64,000 bases of DNA from Klebsormidium nitens (GCA_000708835.1 DF237335.1:23880-87879); one strand, 5' to 3'. Positions 15,015 to 59,765 are shown, numbered from the stretch's first letter. The notes: generated by a model from the letters alone, not told the origin. Numbers and translations: made by a program.

Positions 15015-21115
<6,101 letters not shown>

Positions 21116-39500: not shown

Positions 39501-40213
39501 CTCCCTCCCTCACGCCTCGCTGGTCTGGAACCGGCACTTCGGAATCGCAACAATTTGCCACTTCGGAGCTCGCTCAAGACGCCTGAGTCAGGCTCCCTCT
39601 TCAAAGAGCCTCGGCCCAGAACCGGCAGTTCGGGATCGCTCAACCGGGACAGTCTAAAATGGAGCTTGCTGAGACGTCTGAGTCTGACTCAGGCCTCCCA
39701 TTGCAAGGGAGTTGGAGAGAATCTGTACCTATAAAGAGAGGTCCTGCCCCCTCATACATTCATTCCTTTAGCACTCTTTCCCAGCGTCTCAGGAAAGTTC
39801 CAAAGCACGCGTGCCACTCAGATTTCAGCGACCTACAAGCATCCTTTTCTCAGAGACAACATGCCCGCCATGTTCTGCAGCGCCTTTCTTAGCAAATCAC
39901 GTACCACTAGCTTACTTTGAATTGTAGAAGGCCTGATTTGCCGTGGATCAGCTGCCACTGTGAGTGCGAGGTACCAGCGGGCTAAGCTGGTCAAGTGGTG
40001 GAGGGCAGCTCCAATCCCGCTTAGCATCTGTGCGCAGCTGCCAAGCGCATAGTGCAATGTGTTGTGCTCGAGTTGCTGGCAGTGTGGTCCGAGTTATGAG
40101 CTTCTGAACGTACGCTCTTGTGTAGGTAGTAATAAGCTGTTAGCAGAGGGGGCCAGCTTCGTCAAACAGCTTGCAGAAGAGCACCATTAAATTTGCAACT
40201 GGGGGCTGCTGGC

Positions 40214-41703
40214 ATGGCTTCTGACCTGCGTTTCCACTGGGAAAGGTAAGCCATGTTTATGAGCTGAGTATGCCCCACGTATGCCGAGCAAGAAGGGCTG
40301 ATCATTGATTGCGTTGCACTGAAAGGCCTTTCCATACTGTTGTGCTCTGACCCACAGGAAGCAAACTGTCACTTTGTGTACCTGCCTGTCTACGCTCTGT
40401 TGCTTCTTTATATGAGTCGATCTTGCAAAACCTGGACATGGCTGTGGTGGAGGTTTAGAGCAAGAGATTTAATCGGTGCTGCTAGGATCACTAGCTAATA
40501 TGGAACCCTTCCCCTCACTCGAATGCTGACTTGCACCCCCTATCTGTTTCTCTTCAGTGATCCTTCCTCCTCTGAAGAACCGGAAGGAGAGGATATTGAA
40601 GGTGTTGAGTATGCGCCCCGCTCTGTTGACGGCTCAGAGTCTGGACGCTCACTTGCGGACTTCCTCCAAGACGAAGACTGTGCCAGTATCCAAGGTCCGT
40701 CCTTCTACAGGGCGTTTAACAACGAGAAAAGCCTCAGCCCAGCTTATCTGCCAAGGGGTCTCCCAAATCTGCTAAGCAAGAAGAGACCCGCTCCGGTGAG
40801 CTTGCTTGTATTTTACATGCTTCCGGTGTGCAGCATTTGCGCGTCTTCTTCTGCCTTGATTCCATGACATAGGTTTTTGGAAAGAACCTTCCTTGCTTCT
40901 TGCAGCGCTAAGCCTTTGGCCTTCATTCGAAGACAGGCCCAGAAGTTTTGTAACTTGTCGTGCTTACAAGTCGTACCTAGGAGCAATGAATGCTTGACAC
41001 AGCTTGTGTGCTTGTGAAATCCTACTCTGCAATTCACCATTGTTGAAAAGGCTTTGCGCTGCTCTGAAGAACCATGAGTAGCTCATTTGCATGTATGCCT
41101 TGCAGGGGTATCTGCCTACGTCTCCATTCGCTTGGTCCTGTGGCAGCGCCTTCAGACAGCGGACCTGCATAACGCCCCCAAGCTGCAACTCACAGGTGAG
41201 GTAACAGGCTATTACAAACTTTGAGCAACTTGTGATCAAACCCGAGGGGTGCTACACACAATGATTTCAGCCGTTCTCCCAACCGATGATTGCACCTCAG
41301 AAGGTCCCATCAGCGACGGAGCGTTCTCATTGTGAGTTGCTTTGGAGAACGCTTGACAGGGAGGATGATGATCCATTGCGCAGACGAGGGAGTGTTCTAA
41401 GTCTGCTGATTACTGCCTCGATTCCAGATAAAGGTCTATTGCAGTCTAGAAGAAAGGTTGCTTCGTTTTGCACTTTAGAGTTGTTGAGTCTACCTCTTAT
41501 TTCACCGATCTTAGAAACTTCTTGTCTTGCATTTACAAAGTGCCTCCCCTTCTCAGGTACCTTCATCTTCTCGCGTCCTTCAAAGCAATGGCGGCAAGAA
41601 GGGTTCAAGTCAACCTTCAGCTGGCGACTGTAGTCAAAGCCTAACACTGAGAAGGAGAGGCCTCGTAAAGAAGCGGCGGCGCGTCATCCTCTCGCAAGAG
41701 TAA
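40214..41703 (+). pseudogene. Truncated paralog of exons 1-3 of the PrimPol-helicase gene (138 aa, then TAA)
   Basis: Exons 40214-40245, 40558-40795 and 41557 onward mirror 45760-45791, 46115-46352 and 46936-47121. GLVKKRRRVILSQE* versus GLAKKRRRVILSQDS (TCA to TAA). Confidence 0.8.
40388..40437 (+). repeat. 50-bp palindromic box (intron 1 of the truncated paralog)
   Basis: gtctacgctctg-26 nt-caaaacctggac. Confidence 0.75.
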
Positions 41704-42359
41704 GAAGAAGAGCAGCCGGTGCTCCCCCCCATTGGGTGAGAAGTGCGCTCAGCACAACAGCGTCCCTCTCCGCATGCAAAAGGCGGAACGTTGTGACGGT
41801 CCGTTTGAGTGACCCCAAAGGCTAATGCGACCTAAGTGGGTTTTGAGGGTCGGTGCGAACCCTTGGGGCTGCTATGCCAGTTTTCTGAGGCCTCAAGTGT
41901 GCCAGTGACTACCACGTATGGAATCCTGAGGGCTTGTTGGAGTTGAGTCAACACGGCAACGTAAATGTTGTTGCAGCCAATCATGTAGCGTCAAGCTCGA
42001 GTAGGGTTAACAACTTGGGGTGACAAACAGATGTCTATCGTGCTCTGCGCAGCGAAGGGTAGGTCTATGTGCAAATGATCGACATGTTCGATCTACCATG
42101 CATGTTCATGCTTTGAATCTGCACACGGCATCATGCAATTAATGATGCAGGTGTTTGCATTCCTTTGTTGAAGGTCATGCACATTCATATATCGATCGGG
42201 GCGTCTCGCACGCTTATGTATCATCGCCGCGCATGCACACTAAAGTCGTCACTCTAGAACAAAAGCGCGGAAAATATGCGCATCAAATCAAAGATATATA
42301 TGCATAATTGTATGCATGTTTGAGTTCACACGATCAAGCTCATACCAATGGAACATACG

Positions 42360-43064
42360 TTATGCATGATACACATGTACATCACCATCTGATCGTTTTA
42401 CACGAGTACCAAAGTATAAATACAAACAACCTCCAAACAATTGACTTGATGGAGACAAACCATCTTGCATGCCAGTAATGTAAGCGCTTGTCCGAACAAC
42501 TAGAATCGGTTTACTTCTGATCTGATCTTTTAACTCAGGAACGATGTCAAAATATGTACAGTGCTTTGGGCGGACTTTTGTCATGTGGCGCTTGTCTAAG
42601 GTTGCTAGTTGACTAGTATTCAAACGCTCTGCCACCTCAATGACTGACGCGTCCACGAGACCCAAAGGGAAATCTGAATACTTCTTCACTAACTCTAGGG
42701 CTCGTGGCAGGAACGACGGTTCCCATACGTCGACGATGAACAGCCCTTTCAAGACCCCTTCTTCAAGACACACAACTTCAATCTCCGTTCCACTATCTTT
42801 CACCAGTAGATGAGTTACCTCCGGAAGACAAAGTGACGGAAGAACCAATGGGTACCCCTCAGGGATAAGGACTGCTTCCATGATCTCATCGATGACTTTG
42901 TGATCAGCATCATTGTAGTCGAAGTACGCTTTAAGGAATCCCGCATCCACCACAAACGCATCTTCTAAACGCCGTCCCTCATGTGTCTTGACTGTTTTGA
43001 AGGTCGGAGCCATTGCCACGTTGTCTGCTTCTTTCCTTCTCGACCGCTTCCCAGCTGCAACCAA
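42360..43064 (-). CDS. VapC-like PIN-domain ribonuclease (bacterial toxin type), no intron within the domain; first ATG at 43013
   Basis: FVVDAG, LVLPSLCLPEV, ALELVKKYSDFPLGLVDASVIEVAERLNTSQLATLDKRHM..VRPKH; all four acidic PIN positions are present. A candidate acceptor (tttgctttggttgcag) just before 43054 means it could instead be a terminal exon. Confidence 0.85.
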   Translation of the reverse strand: MVAAGKRSRRKEADNVAMAPTFKTVKTHEGRRLEDAFVVDAGFLKAYFDYNDADHKVIDEIMEAVLIPEGYPLVLPSLCLPEVTHLLVKDSGTEIEVVCLEEGVLKGLFIVDVWEPSFLPRALELVKKYSDFPLGLVDASVIEVAERLNTSQLATLDKRHMTKVRPKHCTYFDIVPELKDQIRSKPILVVRTSAYITGMQDGLSPSSQLFGGCLYLYFGTRVKRSDGDVHVYHA

Positions 43065-44914
43065 AGCAAAGGTTGGAATCAGTGGTTAGAGAACTCGTAT
43101 CTCTTGGGGAGCAAACACTGTTTACAGTCTATCTATGCAAGCTGAGATGCCGCCTAGAGTAAATAGCTTCAAAGCAACTACCGTAAGGCGTAGTCTAGCC
43201 TCCCTCAGCCTAAAGGTTTTGTGCCAAATAGTCTGGTCCGTGACAACATGCACACGACTGGCCCTACCAATTACTGCTTGCAAAGGCCTACAGATTGTTA
43301 GGGCAGATGCATCAATTCCTAACATAGCTTCAACTGACAAAGAAGGGAGACCTTTCAAAACCGGCTGGAAAACCCTTTGCATATTGGCGGTTCCGCTGGT
43401 ATCCTTCAACTGTGTTGTCACTCACGCTTCGATCCACGCTTGAGAGCGTCCACGACGCATGTATCGCGCCTTCCGTTCCTCCATACTGATAGACTCGGCT
43501 TGCTCGCGCCACATGGCCCATTGGCGGTCCGTCTCGGCCCAATGTTCAAGCTCTTCCCGGTCCATAGTCTTTCCCTCAGGGATCCAAGACTCTTCAAAGA
43601 CAATTGCAACTGGTCAGATTGCAACGCAGGCATCTCCTTAGCACTGTTAGGGTTTCTGGGGCTGAGGTCCGAACGACGACATCGCAACAGCTTGTGCCCT
43701 AGCCAATCACCTTTTGCAAACATTTCATGAGCAAGTAAGAAATTTTGACAACGACAGAATACTTGAAGCAGATGATAACTGCAAGGATGCTGATAATGTC
43801 CGTCAAAGACCACATAATGGAAAGTCAGCGATCACAGCACTGCTGCAGCAAGAAATCTATGAAGCTGCCCATATCGCAGGGACCCTGATACACGAGAGAC
43901 TCCTTGAACTGCAGGAGATCTGAGAAATGCATACGTCAGCAAGAGTCTCCAAGGAGCGGCTATCATAAAAAATGTTTTGATGAAGGCGAGCAAGGCTTTC
44001 ACAAAAGGTGTCCTGAACAGGTCCCCAAAAAAACCTCAACCTTGCTGGAAAAACGAATTCGCTCAGACCTATTTCTACAACCCAGGCCCCTTCTGGAAAA
44101 TGGTGGTTAGGGAAGCTCCAGTTCAGCTCGTACGTCAACTTTGTACCAAACGCCTAATGACACTGCCCTTGCTGAATCCAGAGATGAATGCTTCTGTAAC
44201 ATGTTCCCCTACCACAAAAGTACCTAAACCCCTTCCTTTCCTCCTGTTGCTGCGAGAACATTTCTGACATAAAGAGAAGCTTGCGAGAGGAGGTTCCAGC
44301 AGCCTATACTACATACCGGTGGCTCGCTCCCCCTTGAGCAGACTTCCAGACCACATCGGACGCCCCACGTTCCTGGCCTTGGGAGCAACAATGATTGCAT
44401 GCTCCTGGTTGTCTTGCCGGTGAGGCCCCTGGCAACCACAAAAGTACACCCTTCAAGAGAAAGTCAAGGTGATTGAGCAATGGCTGAAACAACAACACCG
44501 CCGCCCCAGCAAAAGAAGTGCCAGTAGATGACGCTCCTTTCTTATGCCACACAGCTTTTTAATGTAAGCATGCAAGTCCGAGAAAGATGCAACAACGGGG
44601 TCGAACCTTGAACCTTGCAACATTAAGGTTATCCAAAACAAAAAAGAAGGGGGGTCGAGACAGAGCAATCCGCCTTATTCAGGCGTTCACGTCCAACAGT
44701 GGCCGTACACAAGGCAAAATCTCACCTGTGCAGCAGGGGCGCAGCAACGAACTTGAACGACGCGACAGGCGGAAGCCATGCGTGCCTACTTTTCGAAACT
44801 TTGCGCAACCAGTGCAAGTCGAGTTGGAGAGACTCTGCTGCGACTGGTCCAGCCAGGGTGGCTCCCTTGTCCTGCCTCCAACTAACCAAGATTGTTGACA
44901 TAAAACCCGCCAAG

Positions 44915-45759: not shown

Positions 45760-48700
45760 ATGGCTTCTGACCCGCGATCCCACTGGGAAAAGTAAGCCGC
45801 TGCTCATGAGCTGAGTATGGCCTCAGTATGCAAAGCCAGAAGGGTCTTCTTGATAAAATTTGATTGAGACTGGTACGGATCGTGATGGAATTGCACTGAA
45901 AGGGGCTTTTCCATATTTGATGTGCTTCGAATCATTCGAAGAAGACCTGTCCATGTTCTGTCGCTTCTTTATATGTGTCTCTGATGCAAAACCTGGACAT
46001 GGCTGTCGTGGAGGTTTAGAGCGAGAGGTTTAAACGATGCTGCTGAGATCACTAAGCTGAGCCCTGTCCTCCAAAACCCAAAGGATGACCTGCATCCTTA
46101 TCTATCCTCTCCAGTGATCCTTCCTCCTCTGAGGAATTGGAAGGAGAGGATATTGAAGGTGTCGAGTATGCGCCCCGCTCTGTTGGCGGCTCCCAGTCTG
46201 GACGCTCGCTGGAGGAGTTCCTTCAAGACGAAGACTCTGCCAGCATCCAAGGCCCGTCCTTCTACAGGGCGTTCAGCAATGGGAAAAGCCTCAGCCTAAC
46301 TCAGCTGCCAGAGGGCGTCTCAACTTTGCTCAGCAAGAAGGAATTTGCTCCGGTGATTTTATCGGCTTCTGCTTCTGATTTTGCCGTGCTTCCGAGACAG
46401 CTTCTGTGATTGTACAACGGCACCTCAGTTGACTGCCATCTAAATCTGTTCAGTGAACCACCGTTGAGTAGGCTCTGGTCTGCTGCTGAAAATGCATAGG
46501 TTGCTCACCGGCATGTATGCCTTACAGGGTTACGTGCCCACCTCTCCATTCGCTTGGACTTCCGGTAGCGCCTTTGGAAAGCGGATATGCATAACCCCGC
46601 CAAGCAACTTCCAGGTGAGTTAAGAGGCTAGTACAAACTTGCGCAACTTGTGATTAAAACTTCGTGATACTGCACAGGTTGATTGCAGTTGTTCTCCAAT
46701 CGTTGCACCTGAGAAGATTCCATCAGCGTGGATCGTTTCTGTTCCAGGCTTGTTGTTGCTCAACAGGACGGCCTTAGATGCTGCCTACAGTGACCTTTCC
46801 AGTATGTTGACAACCGCCTCAATACCAGATGATGGTCTGGTGCACTTTGTATAGGCTGTTGAGTCTGCTTCTAACTTCTTCGATCCTTCAGTCCACTTCT
46901 CCCTCGTTTACTCACTGCCTTCTCTCCTCATGTAGGCGCCATCATCTCGTTGCATCCTGCAAAACGTTGGTGGCAAGAGGCTCGCAAGTGAAGCTTCAGC
47001 TGGCAATTGCAGTCCGAGTCCAACATCGAGAAGGAGAGGCCTCGCAAAGAAGCGTCGGCGCGTCATCCTCTCGCAAGACTCAGAAGACGAGCAGCCGGTG
47101 GCCCCCCTGCCTCTTGTAGAGGTGAGTCGTGCTTGCATACAAGTTTCGTCCAGGTTTTGCAGATGCGAATTTTCAAACGACAAAACGTGGATATCAGCTG
47201 GAGTCCCTTTTCTGCAGCCAGCTCTGCTCGTCTTCTGTGTTTTCTTGATGCAGAAGCTGGACAGGCGCTTAGAACTCAAATGTCGAGGCACGTCCCTAAG
47301 CTTGGAAATAAAAGAAGTGACGGTCCAGGTTCTGTCGTTTCTTTATACGCATCTCTGATGCAAAACCTGGACGGCAAAGATCTCAAGGCCCCAGATTCTT
47401 TACTCTCAAAACTTGCGAAAGTCGAGGCACGTGCCCAAGGTCAGAAGCAAAATCAAGTCGCCGTCCAGGTTCTGTCGTTTCATTACACGTGTCTCTGATG
47501 CAAAACCTGGACAGCACAAAACTTCAAGGCTCTAAAACAGTGAAAAACCTTCGCAACAATGCAGAAAGCGGGCAGTGCCAACTGCTTAGCACTCAGATCA
47601 ACGCCTTCCATTTGTTGGCCTCGATCAAGTTCTTTGAAACGGGGGGCAAAGCCAGCATTTCTGACGCACACTCCTTCGTCCTTTCTGCAGGTGGCAATCG
47701 GTCAACCCGTTGATAGGGTGCGCGCAACTGATCGCAGCCAAGAGCATGGTTTCGCACAAGAGCAAGCTCAGGTACAGCGCCTGGCCATAAGGACCGTTTA
47801 AGGTTAGATGAAGGCAAGTTGGTAGAAGCTCGCAGCAGACTCAATGGCAGACACGCACGTGTGAGCAGTCTAGTCGGGAACGAGAAACCCCAAATCAGCC
47901 CTTCAAACGATTACAGTATCTTGCATCCGTTTGTGCAATCCGATTCATACATTGGAAGAGCCGCTCAAAGCTGAACGGCTTCCTCACGAGTGTCGTTTCA
48001 ATTGCTTGCTTAAGTGAGCCGTTCCCTCCGTCAGCTTCCGAAGTGTTGTCTCCTTTTGGCAGCGTTCTTGCAATACTTCTGCTCGATATTCACCTTGCAA
48101 AGAATTGAGGCTGCAAAAATCAATCATGTGATGCCCGTCTAGCAGAAGTAGCGTAATTTCTCAGGCTCTGTTGCAGATCCCTGGTCGTGTGATGGTGCAC
48201 ACCGAGCGTGACGGCACAATCCAGACAGTGCAAGAGAACAAACTCGGAACGGCCTTCTTCTCCAAGCTCAGTCGAGCAAAGCTCCACTACCAAGACCCTA
48301 AGAACGGGCCGCAGGGTTTCAGCAAGCGGTATGCTGCTCTCTGCGAGCACAAGGTGGAGCTGCAACTTCTCGACCACAAGGGCTATCGCAGCTATGGGTC
48401 GTACTCAGACTGGCCGACCGCGCGGGACTTCACTTCGCAGCAGCCTTTCCTCGAGGAGGTGCTTGTCGAAGGGAAACCCTGCAAGCCGTTCCTAGACATG
48501 GAAAGAGATCAGGGGTTGCCCGAGGGGGAAACTCTTGAGAGCATCATCAGCCAGTTTCAAGAGGCCATCACGAAGATCTTTGCGGAGGACTACGCAGTCG
48601 AGATCCAAGAGCGGGACTTCAACTGGGTCCACTGCGACTACGGACCCGGCGGCAAGTTCAGCGTCCATCTCGTCATCTCAACGCATGGGCCGCGACAAAT

Positions 48701-51700
48701 GGTCTTCCGTTCCAATCTCGCCCCTAACGTTGACCCGCAAGGAGCAGGGCACCTTGCCCGTAGGCTTGCTAAGGTTCTCCCCCCGACCCTGGCTGACCTC
48801 ATCGACCAGAGTGTCTACACTCGGAATCGAGGCATCCGGATGCCTGGTTGCGCAAAGCCATCCAGACCCGACTGCCCCCTGCGTCCCCTGGACCACGCCA
48901 AGCCATATGCTGACAGCGTCATCACCTGGCAAGGTAGGTAGCCTCTTGTATACGACGGCTTGCTTTTTCTGGAGAAACTCTTCGCTGAGTGGCAGGATAG
49001 AGGCAAGTCGCGGTCCAGCTTTTGTCAAGTATTTTAAAGCAGAGATATGCAAACCCTGGCCAGACGCCGGCACATGACTGCCGCATGGCACTGCCCGATA
49101 GCTTCAGGCTTGTTGACCTGTGAAGTTTGTCAGAACGGAACTAGGAACGTATAGCAACTTGACTTGGACTTTATAGGCACAAGAATCGTGTGTCCAGTTT
49201 TTGTCAATTTATATTACGCTCATTCTTTGCAAAACGTGGACAAGTTTGTGCGCACCATCTTTGAAGTAGGTCGTGCGCTCAAGACTGCAAGATATAGACA
49301 AGGCCCTTCTGCTGGCTGACGTCATTAAATGATCTGCTTGAGTCGGTCGAATTGAGCACCTTTCGTCCGAAGTGTCATCAGGCAACTTGACTTGGACTAA
49401 GTTCATAAGGACAAGAATCGCCTGTCCAGGTTTTGTCCTTTTATATTACGCTCATTCTTTGCAAAACGTAGACAACTTTCTGCGCACCATAACTGAACTA
49501 GAGCGTGTGCCAAAGACTGCAAAATGTAGACAAGGCTCCACTGCTGGCCCGCTGACGTCATCAATCTGCTTCGTTGTTTGACCAGGAGGTTGACTTCATC
49601 AAGGTCCCCGTCCTCGTGCCTGATGCTATGCGACAACAGCGGCGCCCCACCAAGCCCGCCGAGATGGCTGTCCTCAGCGCCTCCAATCTGGACGCCTACA
49701 CGGTCCAGCGTTGCCTAGAGCTCTTGCAAGCACGGTTACATCCAACGGCCTACAAGCGAGGGGCGAGTAGGGAGCTGAACTACAGCTGGACGGACCGAGA
49801 AGGAGAGCCGTGCTACACCGGGAACACTCACTCTGGAGGGCGCGATCTTTTGTGCATCGTGAACGAGACTCAGAACGCCGTCTTTGCCAAGTGCTCCAGC
49901 GAGAGGGTCGACTCCACAACCGGAGTGTGTTGCATGGAGCAGCCTGCCCACTATCTCGGCCGTTTGTACGAGGACGTGGAGACTTGGAAGGCCGGCGCCA
50001 TCGAGATCGACATGCGCTACCTCGAGCGGGACCCCCTTGCTGCTGGACCGATGGATCTGCAGCTGATCCGGATGGGCTCGAAGGGGATGACGGACAAGAT
50101 TCTTCTGAACAGCGTGGTCAACAGGTGAATCCGCAAGTTTCGATTGCTTGCAACTGCAAAGATCTGCCGCTACTCGCTAGTATTTTCTGGTTGTCTTCCT
50201 GAGTCCGTCAAGTTCATCTGTCTTGCTCAAGTTGAAAGCACAGCATATCGCATGTAAGCAGTTGCAGCAGCTCTTGGATTCACCTTATAAACGGTTCCAA
50301 TTGTAATGACAACCTGTTTCTTTTGGCGCTTTCTCAGATTTGGCCGCACGTATGATAGGCTGATAAACGGTTTTAGCCTCGAAGTCAAGCGGCTTTCCTG
50401 CCCACCGTTGAAGTAGATCCTTGGCTTCGCAGGTGGCAAGCTGGCGAATTCCAGGCGCTCCTCGTTCGAAGCCCGATGGGCACGGGCAAGTCCGAGCTGG
50501 TCAAGCGGATCAAGGCCGAGGAGCCCGTCCCTCAGAAGATTCTGCTGATCACTTATCGGCAGACGCAGGCGGCTGATGCACACGGCAAACACCCGGAATT
50601 CGCCCACTATGCGGACCTCAAAGCCCTGCCATCCCAGCTGAACGAGCAAGGGGACTTCGTTGCTCCTTTAGCCGACCAAGTGCGGTTCCCAAAGGTCATA
50701 GTCCAGTTCGATAGCCTTAACCACCTCCTCGTCGACAGTAGAGTGGTCGACTCATTCGATCTCGTAATTCTTGACGAGAGCGAGTCCATCTTGGCCCATC
50801 TTTCAGCTGACACCTTCTCCAACAGACACCGGACCGTCAACTTCCTGATAGAGCTTCTGGACCAAGCAAAGCGGATCATAGCGCTGGATGGGCACTTGGC
50901 TCAGCGGACGTTCGACTTTCTCACAATGAGCGGCATCCCGTGCGGGCCTGTAGTGGTCAATAATCACCTACCCGAGCGTCCGCTCGAGTTTACAATTCTA
51001 GAGAAGGACGAGGGGAAAGCTTACTGGCAAAGGTCCATCTGGTCTGCTCTAGAGGAGGGCAAAAACTGCATAGTGTACAGCATGTCGGCGGAAGAAGTCT
51101 TCAAGTTGAGGGACGCCACCGAAGCTACAGGCCTGCTACAAGCCTCGGAAATACTCGTGATCACAAAAGTTTCTCCCGGAGACATCAAAATGGGCCTGAA
51201 CAACGTGAACCTCTCCTGGAAACGCCGGTTGGTCATCCTCAGCCCCACAGTGGAGGCAGCGGTCGACTTTTCGGCGCGGTGGTTTCACCGCTGCTTCATC
51301 TACATCTGTCCACAGAGCACCACTCCGAGGGGCTTGGATCAGATGAAAAGCCGCGTTCGAAACCTGGAGGAACCAGAAGTGTTGTGCTACGTGCAAGCCG
51401 GCATCATTTTGCCGAGCAAGACGGGGCTGGACGCTTTAGGTGCGTGCGATGGAGGTCAGTGTACAGCCGCTGAACAATGGCTTGGTAAACCATAGGCTCT
51501 GCTCCGATAGACTGCCTTTGTTGCAAAGTAGCTAGAGTCTTTTAAAAGCATGACCGTAAGACTTAGGCATGGGCCTAGGCTTAGGGCGTCTATGTTTTGT
51601 CAGGTTCCAAAGCACGTGCTCGAATTCCGAAAACCAGTACTAGTTAGTAGGTCCGATTTGCCGTCCAAGTTCTGTCCTTTCTTTATATGTGTCTCTGATG

Positions 51701-53268
51701 CAAAACCTGGACAGCGCGAATCTCAAAAAGATGACAAGGCCTTGAGCGTTTATGTTTTGTGGAATTGGACAGCAGCTATGCTCGTCTAAATTTTGTCGAG
51801 AGCGAAGGCACGTGTTAGACCTTGACAGCGAAGCAGATCGGGGGCGCCCATGTTTTGTCGATTCTATGTATGCGTTTCCGATGCAGAACCTGGACAGTGC
51901 AGATTTTGAGGCCCTGCTCGAAGTCTTTGCAACGAAGATAGCCTGTACGAGCTATCACGGACTTACATCTTTGTGTGATTCATCCGACCTTATTCTTGGT
52001 TCTAGATCGATTCTGCTGAGTTGAAATCCCCTTTACAATTCTGAGTAAGCAGCACTTTCAATCTGAATCTTGCCAACGTACTTCCTTCGTGTACTCTATG
52101 TGCAGACCCTGTGGGCTCGACTCAGGCTGTCTACCTAACTGCCATGGGGCCCAAACAAGCAGCAAGCCGGCGGCTGGGGGTAGAGGAATCCTACCAGTTC
52201 ATGCGCTGGATACACAAGAACGTGGAGGCCCGTCAAGAGACGAGGCAACGAGGGGAAGGGGGACAGAGCATCTTCGCGCCGATAGAGGACGCTGTAATGA
52301 GGGTCTTAGCACATAACGAAGCTGAAAGCAGCAACAAAACCTCGCACTTCTATGAGGTCTTCACTGAGTTGCTCAAGAGCGAGGGGCATATTGTGAAGGG
52401 GGTGCGCCAGTTGGACCTCGCGCCGAAATCCTTGGCTGGCCCGGAAGAAGACGAGGAGGGGCCTTCCCGAAGCTATCTAAAGCGGCGTCTGCTGGGGGCG
52501 CCTGACATCTCGCTCGAGGAGGCTAAGCGCCTTCAGCTTCTGATTAACAAGAAGCAAGATCGGGAGGGGGACTTTGCGAAGGTGGAGCGGTTCAACTATC
52601 GGAGGTTTTACAAGCTTCGACAGCTTGATGGACCCTTTCTTGACATCTTTGGGGGACAGCATCTCGACTCCCTCACCTTGCTGCTTCAAGTGGTCGATCC
52701 TGCCTATCAATTCCCCGAAGACGAGATCGGTAGAGCGAAGTCCGCGCCACTCATGGCAAAGCTCGCGAGAGAGGTCGTTTGTGTGCTTGGGCTCGACCAT
52801 CCGTTGGATTACGCACATGAGTCCGAGAAACTGGAGGTTCTGAGGCCGAAGCTGGCGGCGACCGAGTACTTCCGCGACTACGGAAGATGTGTTCGGCTGT
52901 TCACTGGACGCACCGTTCAACAGATCGCAGATCTAGACGACCCGAAGGCGGTCTCCCACGCCTTGAACCACATCTTCAACCGGATGGGCGTCCATGTTAA
53001 GCACGTCCGGTTGGGCCGGCAGACAAAAGCTGACTGCAAGGCTACTAAGAAAAGGGAGCGCCTGTATGGGGGTTGGCAGATTGAGCCTGAATGTTCCGGA
53101 AGAATCGTGGGTGCGAAGCTCATGGTGCAGTTGCTCAAGCTACAGGTGGAGGCGTCTTCATTGATGCTGAGAGATCTGGACTCAAGTCTAAGAAGGCTCA
53201 TAGAAAACGCGCCGTTCCAATACAGGCACCTTGTAGAAGCCCCATGCATGTTGGAAGCCGTAGTGTAG
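45760..53268 (+). CDS. Spliced PrimPol-type AEP primase + Zn finger + UL9/origin-binding-protein-like SF2 helicase fusion (~1347 aa)
   Basis: Exons 45760-45791, 46115-46352, 46936-47121, 47691-47771, 48177-48933, (49108-49148 candidate), 49586-50124, 50433-51439, 52106-53268; 4044 nt in total, in frame. Motifs: EEVLVEGKPCKPFLDME, KFSVH, IDQSVYTRNRGIRMPG, CYTGNTH...AKC...C, VRSPMGTGKS, LLITYR, VILDESESIL, ILSPTVEAAVDF, QMKSRVR. Confidence 0.85.
45949..45998 (+). repeat. 50-bp palindromic box (intron 1 of the helicase gene)
   Basis: gtccatgttctg-26 nt-caaaacctggac. Confidence 0.9.
47148..47512. repeat. Three boxes in intron 3: 47148-47192 (reverse, shortened), 47323-47372 and 47463-47512 (140-bp tandem unit)
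   Basis: gtccaggttctgtc...gatgcaaaacctggac occurs twice. The whole 47270-47535 block is an inverted copy of 60545-60812. Confidence 0.9.
49013..49473 (+). repeat. Three boxes (49013-49061 degenerate, 49192-49241, 49424-49473); the last two lie in a 232-bp tandem duplication
   Basis: gtccag(t/g)ttttgtc...ttgcaaaacgt(g/a)gac. The flanks caacttgacttggact and caagactgcaa...agacaagg are duplicated. Confidence 0.85.
51663..51895 (+). repeat. Two 50-bp boxes (51663-51712, 51846-51895) in the last intron of the helicase gene
   Basis: gtccaagttctg...caaaacctggac and gcccatgttttg...cagaacctggac, each preceded by CACGTG. Confidence 0.88.
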
Positions 53269-53512
53269 GCTCTACTTGCTTTCGAAACAGACCGTCAAAT
53301 GTAATATAATTGAAGCACAAACCGAAAGTTGGAGCTAACGAGAGTTTTGATCGTGGGTTAAGTTGTATGCAACAAGTCATTTCCCTGATCAAAACATCTG
53401 CTATTGCAACACACGGCATCTCTATGCCTCGACGTAGCCTATCGTGTCTGGATGCGCACTATGATACGAGGCAAGTTACAAAACATGGACGAGTGCAGAG
53501 CTTCGGAATGCT

Positions 53513-53562
53513 GTCCACGTTTTGCATCAAAGACACATATATATAGATGACAGAACGTGGAC
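53513..53562 (-). repeat. 50-bp box (reverse orientation) between the helicase gene and the intronless cassette
   Basis: gtccacgttttgcatc...gacagaacgtggac. 53490-53630 is an inverted copy of 63485-63620. Confidence 0.9.
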
Positions 53563-53710
53563 GGCGACTTGCATAAGCGCGCACTCGTTGGCAAAATCTG
53601 GACGGCGATCTGAGCGCATTCTTGTTCTTCGGTTTTGGTACTATGGACTCGGTCACGTTTCCATGAAATAGCAATCATTGTCTGACAAACTTGTTGAAAC
53701 CCGAGCTTTG

Positions 53711-54124
53711 CTAAGGCTTCGAAGCTTTCATCTCGTCAACTGCTGCCGTTGGAAAGGTGGCGGCCTTCGCACAGACAATCTGATTGTTGTTATCGAACTG
53801 AACGCCAACTTCCTTCAGCTTCGACACTGTCCTTGCGTGAGGATTCCTTGTTCTTCCACTCCTCAGACGCTTGGCAGCGTCTTGTAGTAAGATAGCTTGC
53901 TTATGTTTTTGATACCATGCCTTCTTGTACCTAAGTGCCCGCTGCTTGTTGCATCTGTACGAGTCTCGTCTCTTCAACTTAAGCTCAACTTTGCACCGTG
54001 GCATGGCGTCTGATGCCTGGAGAGATATTGGAAGCAATGCATTCTGAACAACTCGATGCTTATTCCCACAATGGGTACATGGAATCAAGCGCGAGATGGT
54101 CACCTCTGTGCCGGTCGACTCCAT
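53711..54124 (-). CDS. Small basic hypothetical protein (137 aa) with a CxxC motif; virus-like
   Basis: ATG start, intronless, CTHC, YKKAWYQKHKQAILLQDAAKRLRSG...P.ARTVSKL; resembles 59487-59765. Confidence 0.6.
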   Translation of the reverse strand: MESTGTEVTISRLIPCTHCGNKHRVVQNALLPISLQASDAMPRCKVELKLKRRDSYRCNKQRALRYKKAWYQKHKQAILLQDAAKRLRSGRTRNPHARTVSKLKEVGVQFDNNNQIVCAKAATFPTAAVDEMKASKP

Positions 54125-54186
54125 CTCGTCGAAGTGTTCTATACTACTCGGTCATGTTTTTTTTTTCCAACTGATCAACGCAAACC

Positions 54187-54540
54187 TCATTTACCTTTGG
54201 CATCCTTGCAGACCTCGAGTATCCCTTTGGCGATTGACAGTAGAAGCGCTGCCTCATTTTCAGAATATCCACCGCTTTCATGATCTATTATAGAGGCAGA
54301 GACTATGCTGAAAACATCATCCCAAGAGACAATCAACGTATCTTGATCGCAGACCTGATAACGGAACAGTAGTACGCCCTTCCGAATCAAAGTCATGTCG
54401 ATCGGAACTCGAAGCCCTTGATCCACGATCCTTTCATAGCGAAGAGGTCCGAAGCTCTCAATCTCGTTGATGACTGGGAGCAAGCTATACAAACGGGGAT
54501 TTGACTGCTTTGGCACGTAGTATTGAAAACCTCGCTCCAT
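54187..54540 (-). CDS. Hypothetical protein (117 aa)
   Basis: Its ATG overlaps the TAA of the upstream ORF (TAATG at 54538-54542); globular-looking composition. Confidence 0.55.
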   Translation of the reverse strand: MERGFQYYVPKQSNPRLYSLLPVINEIESFGPLRYERIVDQGLRVPIDMTLIRKGVLLFRYQVCDQDTLIVSWDDVFSIVSASIIDHESGGYSENEAALLLSIAKGILEVCKDAKGK

Positions 54541-55397
54541 TATTCTGTTATTAGAAAGGAAAAGAAATCCGGCATGCTGTAGGCTCTGTCCCCCCAGTCT
54601 TCATCACTGTCGACTGCAACACATTTGAACGTTGTTGCCTTGCTTCCTCGAGCCTTTCCAGTGGCTTTTGAAGTGCCTGTAGTAGCTGATTGTTTCGCCT
54701 TACCATTACAAGTTGACTTCCTCTTGCAAGTCTGCTTTGAAGCCTTGCTCGATGCTTTGCACTTCTTCGTGCTCTCTTGCTTCTTCTTTGCGGAAGCGTG
54801 CATCTCGATGAGCTCGTCGACCGGTATCTTAGTTGCTGATGTTGAAAAAGTCCCCTGGAACGGGAGGCCAACAGGTCGTTCACACTTTTTGATTGGAGAG
54901 ATCTTCACTTCATATCCGAATTCCTTCTTGGCTGAACCTCTAGTCGATTCCTGCAGCAGAACACTCACAGTGCAGGGTGCTTTGATGGCTGCACCGTTAC
55001 ATTTGAGTGCCCGAAAGAGCTGGCTTCCAGCTCGAGTGCCTGCTTGTGAAACACGCCCCTTGTCAGCATCAATCTCGAGACGTGTGTCTTCTAGAAGGCT
55101 CGAAGCATCTGATTGGTTATGGTCAAGCGCAAGAAGCACTTTAAAGGATCGTTTCAATGCAATATCCATTAGGCCGGCTGTATGATGTAACGACAGACAA
55201 TAAACCTGAACCCAAAGTGCTTCATGCCCCCTACTTTGGAGGCTGGCCCACTGAAGCACTTCGATCGTCTCGTTGATCTGGCAAGGGTTTTGACAGACAA
55301 TCATCAGAAGTTGCCCTTCTATAAGCAGATTGTTGGCTACATAAAGCACATTACAAAGTTGAACGGCCCCAGTCACAATTCTGAGGGGCAGATTCAC
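54540..55397 (-). CDS. Hypothetical protein with a Lys-rich C-terminal tail (start uncertain; ATG options near 55303 or 55169)
   Basis: 858-bp open frame coupled by TAATG to the next ORF. Confidence 0.5.
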   Translation of the reverse strand: MNLPLRIVTGAVQLCNVLYVANNLLIEGQLLMIVCQNPCQINETIEVLQWASLQSRGHEALWVQVYCLSLHHTAGLMDIALKRSFKVLLALDHNQSDASSLLEDTRLEIDADKGRVSQAGTRAGSQLFRALKCNGAAIKAPCTVSVLLQESTRGSAKKEFGYEVKISPIKKCERPVGLPFQGTFSTSATKIPVDELIEMHASAKKKQESTKKCKASSKASKQTCKRKSTCNGKAKQSATTGTSKATGKARGSKATTFKCVAVDSDEDWGDRAYSMPDFFSFLITE

Positions 55398-55894
55398 AAT
55401 TCGTACGGATTAACACTTAAATTGGGACCCCTGGAGCAAAGTCTTCCTGGGAGCTTTTGCCATTTTGACCACGTCTTGGGAAATTATGTCGTTCCAGGGT
55501 TTGAATTCTGGAATGAAGCAGAAGATCAATCAGTATGTATCGGACTCTGGAATTGAAACGGTGATGCATTTTTGTCGGCTCTCTCTGACTGTATTAGTAG
55601 TTCTGACATTCATCATTTCTATCTGAAGTCTTTGAATTCTAGAATCGAGACAAAAGGGCAATTTTCATGGATATGCAGCCTCCTTCTTACCCAAGTTCGG
55701 AAGCAAAGGTAGGATCTTGGAAAGGCCACCTCAGGTGGTAAGAACAAATGAGGCAATGGTCGATACATCGTTTCAGGGTATTTGCTCTGAGCAGCCGAGA
55801 GTTCTAGAACATGATTCCCTAGGGGACGCATCTCAAGAAGGCGCCCTCGTTTTAATTTCAGAATTATTATAGGCCTCTATAGTATAAGGGAGTC

Positions 55895-56962
55895 ATGGAC
55901 TCAGAAGCATCCGTTCAATCGAGCACAGAATCCACTTCCAATAATCAAGGGGATGTACAGCGAAAGATATCATCAGGTGAGGCAGCTTTGCGCAACCTGT
56001 TTAAGGATGGAAAACGCGCTAACATAACAATTCAACAGTACCTCAACAGTGTGCGAATAATCCATCACCTGGTGACTGGCAAAAAGGTTTTGCCATCCAC
56101 GTTGGATTGGATCCAATCAGTAGATATCATACTTGAAAAACTCAACGCAAAGTACCCTAACCCTGGCACCTATAAGAATAAACTTACCCCATTAATGGTT
56201 TGTGCTCACGCGAAGGGTTGGGAGGAAACTTATAAAAAGTATTTTGAGAGCTTTTCGGAGAAGAAGTTGGCTCTAGAGAAGAAGGCCGATGAACAGAAGG
56301 CAACGGAGAAAGAAACTGCGAATTGGATCTCGATGAACGAACTCAAGGCCAAGGCAGAAGACCTTAACCGGCAGATAAGAAGGAGCATCATGCCGAATCA
56401 TAAAAACAACGGTGGATCAAGCCTGAGCAGAGAAGAAGTGAAGGTAGTGTTTCAGCACTTATTGCTTGCGTTCAATATTCACGAGCCACCTAAGCGAAGA
56501 GATCTCAGCGGTCTCCCTCTTTAGAAAGCAGACGGAAGCTTCTACTGCGATCAAGCTAGAGCAGCCTATAAGGATACCGGCAACTGCCTTCGTGAAAGCA
56601 CAAGTGGTGAATTCATGCTTGTACTGAAGACATACAAGACGAGCAAGCGATATGGAACAAAAGAGTTTGAACTCACACAACGCCTAAACAACTACATCAA
56701 ACGGTCGATTGAGTTAGTTCCTCGAGGTTTTGTATTGTCTCGGTTGGGGAATCCGACAGAAGGGATGTCAGACAACTATCTTACAAAATTCATGGCATCG
56801 ATAACGTTCCCTAAAGGGAAGCATCTGAACCAAAACCACCTCAGACACCTCTTCATCAGCGAACATTTCGCAAATGATCATTCAATCGCTGAGAGGAAGC
56901 AGTTAGCCAATCGCATGATGCACGACTGGTCAACTGCAATGATCACCTATGAAAGAAAGTGA
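55895..56962 (+). pseudogene. Tyrosine recombinase/integrase (PLV/virophage-like), ~355 codons with one in-frame TAG at 56522-56524
   Basis: The 209-aa and 115-aa ORFs are in the same frame, joined by 30 sense codons (KADGSFYCDQARAAYKDTGNCLRESTSGEF). Motifs: PPKRRD (R), YKTSKRYG (K), NHLRHLFIS, RMMH, TY. Confidence 0.85.
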
Positions 56963-56989
56963 AAAGTATTGAATCGGATTTGTAGAATA

Positions 56990-59470
56990 TTAAGCCGATG
57001 AGATTAGTAAAGTTGGGTCAGAAGCCCAGGATCCGTCCCAATGAACTTCGTCGACTCTTAAACGGATTTCTTGCAGCCGTTTCTCCAGCTCACTCCTTGT
57101 TGGAAAGATCAAGCCGCGACCACTGGTGTCTTTGTAACCTTCCAGTCCAAGTGTCCGTTTGATCCGACCAATCAAAACGTCTTTTTGTTGCGGCGGATCT
57201 TCTTTCGCGCCTTGATTGTCTACGAAGGACCTGTAAGTTCGGAAGATGGTGGCGCTTAGCACCTTCGTCTTCTTATCTGATGAGAAGTTACCGTTGTCCA
57301 GCAACCCGCAAATCATCTTCGCCCAAAATGGAATCGAGTGCTCCCTGAGAGCAGAGCTCCACTTGCTTTTCGGGATCTGCTTGGGGTTCCAAGTGTCGAT
57401 GCCTTCTCTTGACATCAAGTACCGGTAGAAATGTTCAGCTGTAGTGCTAGTGAGGCTTTCACAAAGCCGATCAAAGTACGGTTGATCTCCGATTCTAGAG
57501 TCGGAGGCTTCAAAGCATGCATACCTTCTGTCCGTCGCTTCTTTCTTTATTGGCCAGTCCTCGTTAGTATTGAACCAGTAGTTTGCAAGGTCGGGTACTT
57601 GAAGGGGATCGATTCCCTTCTTTTCCAAAATGGTTGAATTCTGGGTGATTAGACTCTTGAGTCGATTATTTGATTTGTATGCCCCACCCCAACTGCTTAC
57701 TTCATCGAAGCATACCAAGAGGAGGTTTGCAGCTATTCCATTGAATTTGCCAATTACCTTCTCCATATCATTACAGTACAGATAGTATCGAGATCCGATG
57801 ACATGTTTCCCCACAAAATCGGTCACAATCGATTTGCCTGCGCCCTGATCAGACCTAAACACAAGTGCAGTACCAATCTTCTTGTGCGGTTTTTGCACAA
57901 GGTGAGCTAACCAGTTTAGAAGGTAGTCCGCTACAGCAGGATCATTGTCCGCCAATACCTCGTTGATATGCTTCAGGAGAAGATCGATTTGTAACATGTC
58001 AACAGGTTGATGCGCTTCTTGAACGAAGGGAAACCCGTAAAACATGTTGTAGTTGCTAGGAGACACCAAACTAGGGTTCGCTTCAAAGACTACCTTGTTG
58101 AGCGTCCTTCTCGCTGATGACTTGCACCAGACCTTCCCAATGTTGCCAATCTTGAGACTGTCCAGGTTGAATGATTCGGACCGTTCCAGGAACTCCGCTC
58201 TTGTTCGAAGGATGCTGTCATTTGGCACCCATGCAGTGCCTCTTTCAACGAAAAGGGTCTCGATAAAGAGAACTTTTGAGCTGCCGTCTAGAACGCAGAA
58301 GTAGTGGTTCATCGTATCGATAGCAATCTGTGTGAGTTGTTGGCACATGTTTTGATACGGCACTTTGTCGACATTGCTTTTGCTGCTTGATATGATTCTC
58401 TCCGCTTCCTCGATAGGGCGCAGATCAAAACGTGCTTTGGAGTTCAAAAGCGAAGGCCAATGGTGCAGCCCGAGAAGAACTCTTGGTCGTTCTTTGCATC
58501 CTGTTGACAGGCAGCGGTATTCCATGCAAATTCCGTTGCAGATGATGCTAAAACTGTTGCTCGTGTGTTCCTCTCGGTAAGGACAAACCCTGCTCTCCTT
58601 CACTCTGAACTTTAAGATGGCTTCCCCATCTCGAAACTTGATGCCTCTGTAGAAACTTGTTTGATCGTTGCATCTACTTCGCAGTAGCTGCGTTGCAACT
58701 TGGATTGCCTTTTCGGCCTCGATGGAAGAGGTCGCTTGCTGAGACGAGAGTTCTGTGGTAGTTGTCTGTTTTGCTTTTGCTTTGCTCACATTTGATGTAT
58801 TATTGCTGGGGTGTTTTGCCGACCCCTGGGCAGCTTGCTTTGTGGAGTCTTGAGCGTTCAAGATATCTACGAGCCACAACGGAAGGCAGGCAAGCTTCGT
58901 TTGCCAAGGGGACCTTAGCCATCTGTATGAATGCTCTTCACCGTCACGAATGATGGTAGTGGGGGGTGCGAAGCAGATGCCATTGCCTCTGAAATCGATT
59001 GTCGTTTGGCTGGAGTTGATGTATAGCTTGGTCGCATCTGCCTTTCGTTCAAGCCCGGGAGAATCTGCTCGAAAGTAGTAGTGCAAACCGCCACTCTGTG
59101 TTTCGGCTGTCCACGTGAGAGGTTCGCCGTGTGCTTGTGTCAAGCTTTTCCAGACATCAAGACCATTAGCGACGGCATTGCTTTCATTCATCTTGGGCAA
59201 GTCGATATCAACCATGATAATGCTATTTGGTCCCGTTCGTCCGCAGAGAAGGGCAAGGGCATTCTTGTCGGAACAATCACGAATAAGATCTTCGTGCAAC
59301 CCCCAAGAAACATCATCCACGATGCTTGAGTATAAGCATCTAAAGTTACTTGCGTCTTTCTTCTTATCCACTTTGTTCCATGTAAGCTTGAGCGTAACCG
59401 GCAGGAGATGAAGGCTCCGATACGATGAGATGCTTTCATTGAGGTCCGGATTCATTTTAAAGCTGGGCAC
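56990..59470 (-). CDS. Bifunctional primase-polymerase (Prim-Pol) + Zn motif + SF3 (D5-like) helicase, intronless, 826 aa (first ATG 59455)
   Basis: IIMVDID, AETQSGGLHYYF, IDFRGNG..FAPPT; CPYREEH...C...C; Walker A SDQGAGKS, Walker B VCFDE, motif C YWFNTN, DRRY. Confidence 0.9.
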   Translation of the reverse strand: MPSFKMNPDLNESISSYRSLHLLPVTLKLTWNKVDKKKDASNFRCLYSSIVDDVSWGLHEDLIRDCSDKNALALLCGRTGPNSIIMVDIDLPKMNESNAVANGLDVWKSLTQAHGEPLTWTAETQSGGLHYYFRADSPGLERKADATKLYINSSQTTIDFRGNGICFAPPTTIIRDGEEHSYRWLRSPWQTKLACLPLWLVDILNAQDSTKQAAQGSAKHPSNNTSNVSKAKAKQTTTTELSSQQATSSIEAEKAIQVATQLLRSRCNDQTSFYRGIKFRDGEAILKFRVKESRVCPYREEHTSNSFSIICNGICMEYRCLSTGCKERPRVLLGLHHWPSLLNSKARFDLRPIEEAERIISSSKSNVDKVPYQNMCQQLTQIAIDTMNHYFCVLDGSSKVLFIETLFVERGTAWVPNDSILRTRAEFLERSESFNLDSLKIGNIGKVWCKSSARRTLNKVVFEANPSLVSPSNYNMFYGFPFVQEAHQPVDMLQIDLLLKHINEVLADNDPAVADYLLNWLAHLVQKPHKKIGTALVFRSDQGAGKSIVTDFVGKHVIGSRYYLYCNDMEKVIGKFNGIAANLLLVCFDEVSSWGGAYKSNNRLKSLITQNSTILEKKGIDPLQVPDLANYWFNTNEDWPIKKEATDRRYACFEASDSRIGDQPYFDRLCESLTSTTAEHFYRYLMSREGIDTWNPKQIPKSKWSSALREHSIPFWAKMICGLLDNGNFSSDKKTKVLSATIFRTYRSFVDNQGAKEDPPQQKDVLIGRIKRTLGLEGYKDTSGRGLIFPTRSELEKRLQEIRLRVDEVHWDGSWASDPTLLISSA

Positions 59471-59486
59471 CCCTCTATGGTAAGTA

Positions 59487-59765
59487 CTAAGGAAAATAAT
59501 TCCCGGAATCCGGACGCGTCAAAAACTTGCCTTCTTGCACATACCCGGCAACTACAAGCTTTGCCATGGTGGAGGGTCGAAGCCTCTTGCCTTCGGAATA
59601 TCGAATTAAAGCTTTGCGTAGACATATCTCCACTTTAGCTTTGCTATAGTGCTTACGAGACCAATCTCTATATTTGTCGAGATTCGAATGTCGGTAGCGC
59701 GCTTCATACAGCCGCCGGTGATGGTTGGGATTAGGTTCTCTTGTGTCTAAGATTGACTCAGCCAT
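59487..59765 (-). CDS. Small basic hypothetical protein (92 aa), likely paralog of 53711-54124
   Basis: YRDWSRKHYSKAKVEICLRKALIRYSEGKRLRPSTMAKL; lies directly upstream of the Prim-Pol gene on the same strand. Confidence 0.6.
   Translation of the reverse strand: MAESILDTREPNPNHHRRLYEARYRHSNLDKYRDWSRKHYSKAKVEICLRKALIRYSEGKRLRPSTMAKLVVAGYVQEGKFLTRPDSGNYFP

Follow-up and report, generated by a model that had tools for sequence, protein, structure and literature searches.

A transcribed, intron-bearing member of a Klebsormidium nitens primase-helicase family of likely giant-virus descent, with its primase and helicase parts in different frames

Proteins that join an AEP primase-polymerase to a superfamily 2 (SF2) helicase resembling herpesvirus UL9 are known from several groups of large DNA viruses. 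The pairing is described in mimivirus R8, pF1055L of African swine fever virus (ASFV), a protein of Ostreid herpesvirus 1 and certain mriyaviruses, and the same preprint describes the UL9 of orthoherpesviruses as having no AEP domain (Yutin et al. 2024 preprint, 10.1101/2024.02.29.582850). Elsewhere, mimivirus gp8 is listed as a bifunctional primase-helicase whose role is unclear (PMC8097291). In the genome of the brown alga Ectocarpus siliculosus, pieces of viral DNA are reported to include an R8-like gene named "OBP", about 1160 amino acids (aa) long with a Herpes_ori_bp domain (PF02399) (Delaroque & Boland 2008, PMC2373305). Core genes like those of nucleocytoplasmic large DNA viruses (NCLDVs) have also been reported in Klebsormidium flaccidum/nitens, with DNAP (the DNA polymerase), MCP (the major capsid protein), ATPase, D5 and VLTF3 named as markers (Gallot-Lavallee & Blanc 2017, PMC5294986). 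Here, we describe a gene of the primase-helicase kind in a window of 64,000 nucleotides (nt) of Klebsormidium nitens DNA (GCA_000708835.1, DF237335.1:23880-87879), the whole stretch analyzed; all positions below are counted from its first letter.

The gene runs on the plus strand from an ATG at 45760 to a TAG at 53266-53268. We think it likely that it is a transcribed, intron-bearing copy within a K. nitens family of likely giant-virus descent, that its primase and helicase parts stand in different frames, and that it probably yields a primase-only protein at most. A preliminary description of this DNA, made from the sequence alone, had taken it for a fully spliced, apparently intact gene; the location and seven of the introns stand as given there, but the frame is broken where exon 6 (ending at 48933) meets exon 7 (starting at 49586), and intron 2 is retained. 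The intact fused protein that the description expected is encoded by a sister paralog, KFL_006750050, and not by this copy. The AEP-helicase architecture itself is already known, and the gene stands out because 7-8 introns, transcription, expansion of the family and an intact member of 1397 aa occur together.

The domains of the gene are, in this order, the AEP, a Cys/His segment with a Cys-His-Cys-Cys (CHCC) pattern, an SF2 helicase of the UL9 type and a C-terminal domain (CTD). The R8/pF1055L type is described with the same order, an N-terminal AEP with intact catalytic motifs followed by a UL9-related SF2 helicase; this likeness is drawn from the published description, and sequence matching was done against open reading frames (ORFs) of giant viruses in IMG/VR. 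The viral ORFs are uninterrupted, whereas the Klebsormidium gene has 7-8 introns, a long acidic N-terminal extension with a nuclear localization signal (NLS)-like run, many paralogs and a place in the nuclear genome of an alga. In this copy, a frameshift breaks up the single fused polypeptide of the R8/pF1055L type. The helicase core, with motifs I, II, III, V and VI, is held in common with UL9 of HSV-1 (herpes simplex virus 1), whose C-terminal region gives a weak structural match (Z 5.9) to the putative origin-binding domain of the family. Orthoherpesvirus UL9, as described in the preprint, differs in the absence of the AEP domain that the Klebsormidium family has. Human PrimPol (PDB 5l2x, 7jk1) shares the AEP fold and motifs (Foldseek TM about 0.5, about 20% sequence identity) and, as the Klebsormidium family does by pattern, has a Cys-His-Cys-Cys segment after the AEP; it has no helicase, whereas the family adds both a helicase and a further C-terminal domain. 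The zinc finger of PrimPol has a role in priming. The Ectocarpus OBP is likewise a PF02399 gene in an algal nuclear genome, but it is reported from a recognizable phaeovirus-like fragment in a brown alga, a setting that the Klebsormidium gene does not have. The earlier survey of NCLDV-like genes (PMC5294986) deals with the same organism and the same phenomenon, giant-virus genes in a nuclear genome, and an R8/UL9-type primase-helicase is not among the markers it names. We found no description of a Klebsormidium primase-helicase family in the literature searched, which did not extend to the supplements of that survey, with their K. flaccidum genomic-context figure.

Splicing was read from contigs of eight public runs, seven from named studies and one without a study. 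The run search listed 24 runs; 20 of them had the stretch or part of it, and 18 of these 20 held 0.58-0.68 of its words, approximately the exon share. Seven GT..AG introns are skipped in the contigs, each in six to eight of the eight runs (Table 1), and the eighth is spliced in a truncated duplicate of the gene that lies upstream. The 7-8 spliceosomal introns of the gene are real, as the preliminary description had held, and the contigs confirm seven of them by the junction check it had proposed. At least one of the runs is RNA, because a loose contig end at 42079, on the transcript of the neighboring duplicate, carries poly(A). The start codon proposed earlier also stands: ATG 45760, in the context GCTGGCATGG, is the start of the deposited model KFL_003860070 (P0018, 462 aa), whose protein begins MASDPRSHWEN and which matches the AEP exon at 100% identity over the full exon length. 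For the TATA promoter proposed earlier, the 860 nt upstream offer one TATA-like word, TATATA at 45411, and contig cover is already present at 45600. Four long open pieces lie on the plus strand of the gene, at 48132-48941, 49556-50128, 50377-51495 and 52045-53268, and the KKRRR run noted earlier is present in exon 4 (46936-47121), where it would serve nuclear import.

Joined at the observed junctions, the exons give three frames, 45760-46406, 46468-49590 and 49586-53265, the last given as its real coding part. Where 48933 meets 49586 (contig joint 48931>49584), the phase is 1 at the end of exon 6 but 0 at the start of exon 7, a +1 shift. The mRNA there reads TGG CAA GGA GGT TGA, so that the AEP frame stops after ITWQGG at TGA 49591-49593; the deposited 462-aa model stops at the same TGA with the same final residues, and one 844-nt contig crosses the joint without a single difference from the window. 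The paralog proteins P0006, P0003 and P0025 continue from ITW into FD(E/K)E where this copy is frame-shifted. A loose end at 48929 shows exactly the in-frame junction of the sister KFL_006750050, relative to which the donor of this copy lies +4 nt and its acceptor +9 nt (net -5 nt), and no canonical GT/AG pair that restores the frame was found by reading 48925-48940 and 49570-49595. The frame seems intact when plausible splice sites are picked, and the real junctions contradict it; junctions that truly break the frame, which the preliminary description had itself named beforehand as evidence against its reading, are what this copy has. Beyond the shift, the frame for the putative zinc finger (ZnF), helicase and CTD is stop-free for 907 codons, out of phase with the AEP on the same transcript, and its first in-frame ATG is at 49628.

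A separate lesion affects intron 2. A contig covers 46255-46605/46612 without a break and without a letter that differs from the window, and it continues across the splice joint 46612>46934. Because the same contig is spliced at the next intron, the retention is not simply unprocessed RNA. The retained intron holds an in-frame TGA at 46407-46409, so that the frame from ATG 45760 ends after 108 codons. The donor of intron 2 in the gene is a weak GTGATT, whereas its counterpart in the upstream duplicate, which is spliced, has GTGAGC. The other path of the contig bubble at this intron is 190 nt shorter and carries four single-nucleotide polymorphisms; two of them are the K>T and L>P of KFL_006750050, which assigns this path to the sister gene. 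Relative-rate counts of window-unique to sister-unique changes, taken with either P0006 or P0003 as outgroup, are 13:10 for the AEP, 7:5 for the ZnF, 11:8 for the helicase and 7:10 for the CTD, all with p >0.5, and over 48749-48812 of the AEP exon the window and the sister contig differ by five synonymous changes and one Thr>Ser. The break in this copy is thus either recent or tolerated. Because two independent splicing lesions sit in one copy, recent decay is the likelier reading, and we give it about an even chance.

Table 1. Exons, introns and repeat copies of the primase-helicase gene and its surroundings (window positions; runs are those whose contigs carry the joint)
Feature	Coordinates	Strand	Remarks
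Exon 1	45760..45791	+	start codon; ends in phase 2; joint 45791>46115 in 8/8 runs
Intron 1	45792..46114	+	GTAAGC..AG, 323 nt; one ~50-nt palindromic repeat copy, 45949-45999
Exon 2	46115..46352	+	acidic/Ser-rich N-terminal region EELEGEDIEGVE; motif common to paralogs P0003, P0021, P0025
Intron 2 (as annotated)	46353..46527	+	donor GTGATT; kept in window-identical contigs; in-frame TGA 46407-46409
Exon 3	46528..46614	+	contigs and deposited protein
Intron 3	46615..46935	+	GTGAGT..AG, 321 nt; joint in 8/8 runs
Exon 4	46936..47121	+	basic NLS-like run RRRGLAKKRRRVILSQ; run conserved in P0006, P0021, P0025
Intron 4	47122..47690	+	569 nt; two ~140-nt repeat units in tandem; joint in 7/8 runs
Exon 5	47691..47771	+	81 nt
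Intron 5	47772..48176	+	405 nt; joint in 7/8 runs
Exon 6	48177..48933	+	AEP primase-polymerase domain: D107-x-E109, S162-x-H164, D210 (exon numbering); ends in phase 1
Intron 6	48934..49585	+	GTAGGT..CAG, 652 nt; two ~165-nt repeats in tandem; joint in 6/8 runs, 6 studies
Exon 7	49586..50124	+	Cys/His segment (EPC-x5-H ... AKC ... CC); UL52/PrimPol-like by pattern only
Intron 7	50125..50432	+	308 nt; joint in 8/8 runs
Exon 8	50433..51454	+	UL9-type SF2 helicase core: GTGKS, DESE, QMKSRVR
Intron 8	51455..52105	+	651 nt; two palindromic repeat copies; joint in 7/8 runs
Exon 9	52106..53268	+	C-terminal domain conserved in family; stop TAG 53266-53268
Repeat copies in the gene's introns	45949-45999, 47323-47372, 47463-47513, 51663-51713, 51833-51906		all in the gene's orientation
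Repeat copies downstream	53497-53627, 60544-60811, 63395-63611		

The assignment of the AEP, in exon 6, draws on both sequence and fold. The exon carries FLDMERD (DxE), KFSVH (sxH) and IDQSVYTRNR. Searched alone against PDB, it placed human PrimPol at the top (E 0.032), with DxE, sxH and VYTRNR aligned, and a profile of 30 sequences (exon 6, two Klebsormidium-clade proteins and 27 giant-virus N-terminal parts) reached PrimPol at 3.7e-22 and the poxvirus D5/E5 primase at 5e-11. In the alignment of these 30 sequences, E94, D107, K160, S162, D210 and K227 are invariant and H164 is conserved in at least 90%. An AlphaFold2 (AF2) model of the domain has a predicted local distance difference test score (pLDDT) of at least 80 over residues ~90-250 and below 50 over residues 1-82; Foldseek returned 30 matches at E<=0.001, in the order human PrimPol (3.7e-09), the AEP of monkeypox virus (MPXV) E5 and vaccinia virus (VACV) D5, the HSV-1 helicase-primase and ASFV PrimPol. 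Against the Pfam model PF01896 (DNA_primase_S) the AEP scored 15 bits, below the cut-off of 26.8 (E 0.034), a shortfall that reflects a sensitivity limit of that model, because the profile search of PDB reaches PrimPol at 3.7e-22. A primase of the PrimPol/giant-virus/herpes kind is supported, in keeping with the resemblance to PrimPol and NCLDV primases noted in the preliminary description. The pattern EPC-x5-H ... AKC ... C that follows is found in the window and in most of 14 aligned family rows, and its label as UL52/PrimPol-type comes from the pattern only. Exon 7, exon 9 and the N-terminal exons had no match in Pfam. The C-terminal parts of relatives carry the precomputed Pfam label PF28041.

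The helicase carries the motif RSPMGTGKS and scores 61.6 bits with the Pfam family PF02399 (Herpes_ori_bp), well over its cut-off of 20 (E 5.5e-17). The exon alone matches HSV-1 UL9 at 1e-7, in an alignment that takes in motifs I, II, III, V and VI (GTGKS, DESE, QMKSRVR), and the family profile reaches it at 1.1e-37. These matches support a UL9-like SF2 helicase, which is how the domain had been read at the outset. For the C-terminal domain, the model has a pLDDT of 74.6, and Foldseek found nothing in PDB at E<=0.001. With VIA-align, residues 547-832 of UL9 (9hgi_A) came first (Z 5.9, root-mean-square deviation 7.0, 180 residues aligned), below the reliable level and the sole chain at Z>=5 among 48,161. 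This model-based match is suggestive of a resemblance to the C-terminal region of UL9, not a reliable one; sequence similarity between the two is undetectable, and the best ESM Atlas score for the C-terminal exon, 0.79, is uninformative. A tblastn search showed that P0003 and P0025 carry the window's C-terminal domain, which a word-indexed search had missed, a result we read as a failure of that search.

In the sister KFL_006750050 (P0025, 1397 aa), a single frame runs through all four domains, and the protein is collinear with each of the nine exons. It falls with KFL_003860070 in one 90% cluster, its identity to the window is 85%-100% per exon (87-93% for the four domain exons), and its transcripts are present in the same runs. 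At residues ~648-671, between the Cys/His segment and the helicase, it has 24 extra residues (SDPAGVDG...); a loose end at 50124/50125, seen in two runs, begins with letters matching them, and intron 7's counterpart in KFL_006750050 is therefore apparently either read through or far shorter. The family has at least 12 proteins named as K. nitens, and six further JGI proteins are related, three of which entered the helicase tree, all inside the Klebsormidium clade. A fused AEP-helicase polypeptide is present in the paralogs P0025 (1397 aa), P0003 and P0001 and not in this copy; several family models are AEP-only (P0018, P0019, P0020 and P0024, 444-482 aa) or helicase and CTD only (P0002, P0004, P0005, P0007, P0008 and P0009, 680-743 aa). 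Paralogs are 47-92% identical, and many members sit on short scaffolds of 7.9-13.3 kb. The upstream truncated duplicate, at 40167-42079 on the plus strand, comprises exons 1-4, introns included, and is ~80% identical at the DNA level over 40167-41729. Its transcripts lack three GT..AG introns (40243>40556, 40794>41105 and 41192>41554) and are polyadenylated near 42079, and its coding potential is limited to the acidic/NLS N-terminal part. Three introns of the gene are thus common to this diverged duplicate, and because the duplicate keeps them, we infer that introns were gained first and that duplication of the DNA then enlarged the family.

An alignment-based scan of IMG/VR gave 105 relatives, many of them metagenome-assembled genomes or contigs of giant viruses of up to 1.15 Mb, and the results that follow are for 80 of the 105. 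In 80 of 80 viral loci the helicase lies inside one uninterrupted ORF, of 689-1506 aa and in some cases cut by contig ends, with ~240-590 residues N-terminal of the helicase and up to ~660 C-terminal of it. Searched with phmmer, the window exons matched the viral ORFs with their order kept: all 80 gave a match to the helicase, 7 to the AEP and 4 to the CTD; a local jackhmmer search raised the AEP to 44 of 80 and the CTD to 63 of 80, and gave one Cys/His segment, with E-values that apply to this small local set. The giant-virus ORFs share the domain order. The earlier description of the gene as a virus-type replication gene broken by spliceosomal introns is supported. When viral contigs were scanned with the helicase exon as a single protein, no relatives came up, unlike in the alignment-based scan. 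An exhaustive search with the AEP exon gave 148 representative clusters at E<=0.001; among 54 new representatives of at least 780 aa, the helicase is present in 41 (in 40 with the AEP ahead), the Cys/His segment in 38 and the CTD in 36. A metagenome scan gave 330 relatives, and because the best 80 of the 330 never exceed 32% identity, a closer donor was not found among them.

In a helicase tree of 82 rows, from which 18 rows with short cover were left out, the Klebsormidium clade forms one branch of 10 rows (SH-aLRT 100) amid IMG/VR giant-virus rows. Its nearest neighbors are P0013 and P0023, then L047/L050, and then L003/L053, a pair from a 1.02-Mb contig. We infer, the tree being rooted at the midpoint only, that the gene passed from virus to alga, and would place the gain of its introns later. 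Long nuclear residence is plausible, because the viral relatives are uninterrupted ORFs and the gene has 7-8 introns, three of them common to the duplicate.

The surroundings of the gene combine host genes with repeats and a second replication-type ORF. Upstream lie a DUF1118 exon at 10216-10560 on the minus strand (3.1e-11) and the exons of an NTRC-like thioredoxin reductase at 15987-19844 on the plus strand, where Pyr_redox_2 is spread over three pieces and one further piece is thioredoxin. A gene with a PIN domain (PF01850, E 3.9e-07), at 42446-44829 on the minus strand and possibly reaching 45277, separates the duplicate from the primase-helicase gene; it has three introns (CT..AC joints) and the highest contig depth in the examined stretch. 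A 255-nt loose end at 45277 has no match elsewhere in the window. Downstream, at 56993-59518 on the minus strand, an intronless 842-aa ORF matches Prim-Pol (PF09250, 3.4e-13) and DUF5906 (PF19263, 1.7e-17); by these domain matches it is a predicted primase-helicase of a second, unrelated type, convergent with the gene. It lies in a stretch with a GC content of 0.45-0.47, and its GC at third codon positions (GC3) is 0.53, whereas the exons of the gene have 0.67-0.77. Viral contigs scanned with this ORF as a single protein gave no relatives, and runs X10, X12, X19 and X20 have no contig cover over 53341-60000, from which nothing is inferred about the ORF. Capsid/MCP, packaging ATPase, PolB and VLTF3 were not found in the stop-to-stop frames scanned with Pfam (150, 43, 22 and 6), the overlapping frames at the gene having been scanned in part.

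A repeat unit of ~130-140 nt, with a palindromic core of ~50 nt (GTCCAGGTT...AACCTGGAC), recurs in the gene's introns and downstream of it (Table 1). A 21-nt word of the core has 8 matches in the window, as against 0.02 expected, with 5 in the gene's introns and none in the first 45 kb, and two of four copies fold into clear hairpins (z -3.5 and -4.5). An origin of the introns as introners was considered and rejected, the repeats filling only part of each intron. Inverted copies of ~130 nt, 88.5% identical, flank 53.5-63.6 kb, which may be a candidate element bounded by terminal inverted repeats, with derivatives like miniature inverted-repeat transposable elements (MITEs). Low-depth contigs (4.5-7.6, two runs) join 49209 back to 45970 with three added letters, with loose ends at 45999 and 49192, and are probably transcripts from other genomic copies of the intronic repeat.

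Several points weigh against our reading of the gene as a broken, transcribed copy of viral descent. All runs are taken as RNA by guess, and nothing on record bears on their nature beyond the GT..AG skips and the one poly(A) end. The deposited model KFL_003860070 does excise 46353-46527, and contigs show presence, not absence, so that a rare isoform with intron 2 spliced or with the frame kept could escape them. The open 907-codon frame and the equal rates fit equally well with a downstream frame that is still translated, from an internal start or a minor isoform. The direction of transfer depends on a midpoint-rooted tree without named reference proteins, and the family in K. nitens was viewed at the DNA level in the 64-kb window only. 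If rare variants were dropped from the contigs, the locus might still make one intact fused PrimPol-ZnF-helicase protein through a splice form that was not captured, as both halves are open and conserved and the sister encodes the fused form. We consider this highly improbable: a single joint crosses intron 6, in six of eight runs and at a depth like that of other joints, no frame-restoring GT/AG pair was found near it, and the deposited annotation ends at the same TGA. A functional fission, too, seems unlikely, though less so. Here, the AEP protein (KFL_003860070) and a separate ZnF-helicase-CTD protein, made from an internal transcript start or by another route, would cooperate like the primase and helicase subunits of herpesviruses. 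The second frame is open for all its 907 codons with every helicase motif intact, the window has no excess of unique changes over the sister (ZnF 7:5, helicase 11:8, CTD 7:10), and several database models of the family are AEP-only or helicase and CTD only, although these short models may be annotation fragments. Exons 6 and 7, however, share one contig and no separate start of the second frame was seen; ATG 49628 sits behind a 460-codon frame, beyond ordinary scanning; and the retention of intron 2 harms the first frame too, which resembles decay and not design.

Instead of a host gene, the locus might hold the replication module of an integrated virus or of a mobile element that is still active. 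The family is multi-copy with many members on the short scaffolds, the MITE-like palindromic repeat is strongly enriched and has five of its eight matches in the gene's introns, and the adjoining lower-GC stretch holds the Prim-Pol and DUF5906 ORF and a weak transposase-like ORF between inverted repeat flanks. Against this stand the 7-8 spliceosomal introns, the ordinary, expressed host genes around it (PIN-domain, NTRC-like and DUF1118), the lack of capsid, packaging ATPase, PolB and VLTF3 in the frames scanned, paralogs that are 47-92% identical and not nearly identical, and the introns common to the upstream duplicate, which point to segmental duplication. We find an active element of this kind improbable. 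The preliminary description had offered an active element gene and a domesticated enzyme as alternatives, and on the present data the gene may be either.

On the reading we prefer, that of a transcribed copy of viral descent with its two parts in different frames, a giant-virus primase-helicase gene would have passed to the alga and gained introns afterwards, and the family would have expanded by DNA-level duplication. In intact members, the KKRRR run may direct nuclear entry, the AEP may make primers or extend DNA, aided by the Cys/His segment, and the UL9-type motor may unwind DNA to which the C-terminal domain binds. This copy would have been disabled recently, by a weakened intron 2 donor and a shifted donor and acceptor at intron 6, with the downstream frame not yet decayed. 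Its main transcript would give a 462-aa AEP-only protein at most, or with intron 2 kept a 108-codon N-terminal peptide only, and its helicase frame would be out of reach for normal scanning.

Replication genes of viral origin that, in an alga closely related to land plants, keep open frames, acquire introns, increase in number and are transcribed may be cases of true domestication. The stronger proposal, that Klebsormidium domesticated a giant-virus primase-helicase as an expressed, nuclear, intron-bearing family and that this locus has been caught splitting into primase and helicase genes in the manner of herpesviruses, seems to us unlikely. If domestication is true, a streptophyte alga would have a second, virus-derived PrimPol-like system to start or restart DNA synthesis. 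Possible roles for the family include repriming, repair and antiviral interference; alternatively, it may represent an unrecognized class of self-replicating element. KFL_006750050 offers an intact, expressed member for biochemistry, and the two lesions of the window copy show how such a gene breaks up.

Two further ORFs were observed in the window. Inside the repeat-flanked stretch, 60890-61489 on the minus strand weakly matches the transposases of the Kyakuja-Dileera-Zisupton family (PF18758, E 0.0085), its 16.2 bits lying below the cut-off of 26.6. At the other end, a 603-aa open frame at 1844-3652 on the minus strand, with no Pfam family, lies in the most GC-rich part of the window (0.61), with several overlapping long frames on the opposite strand.

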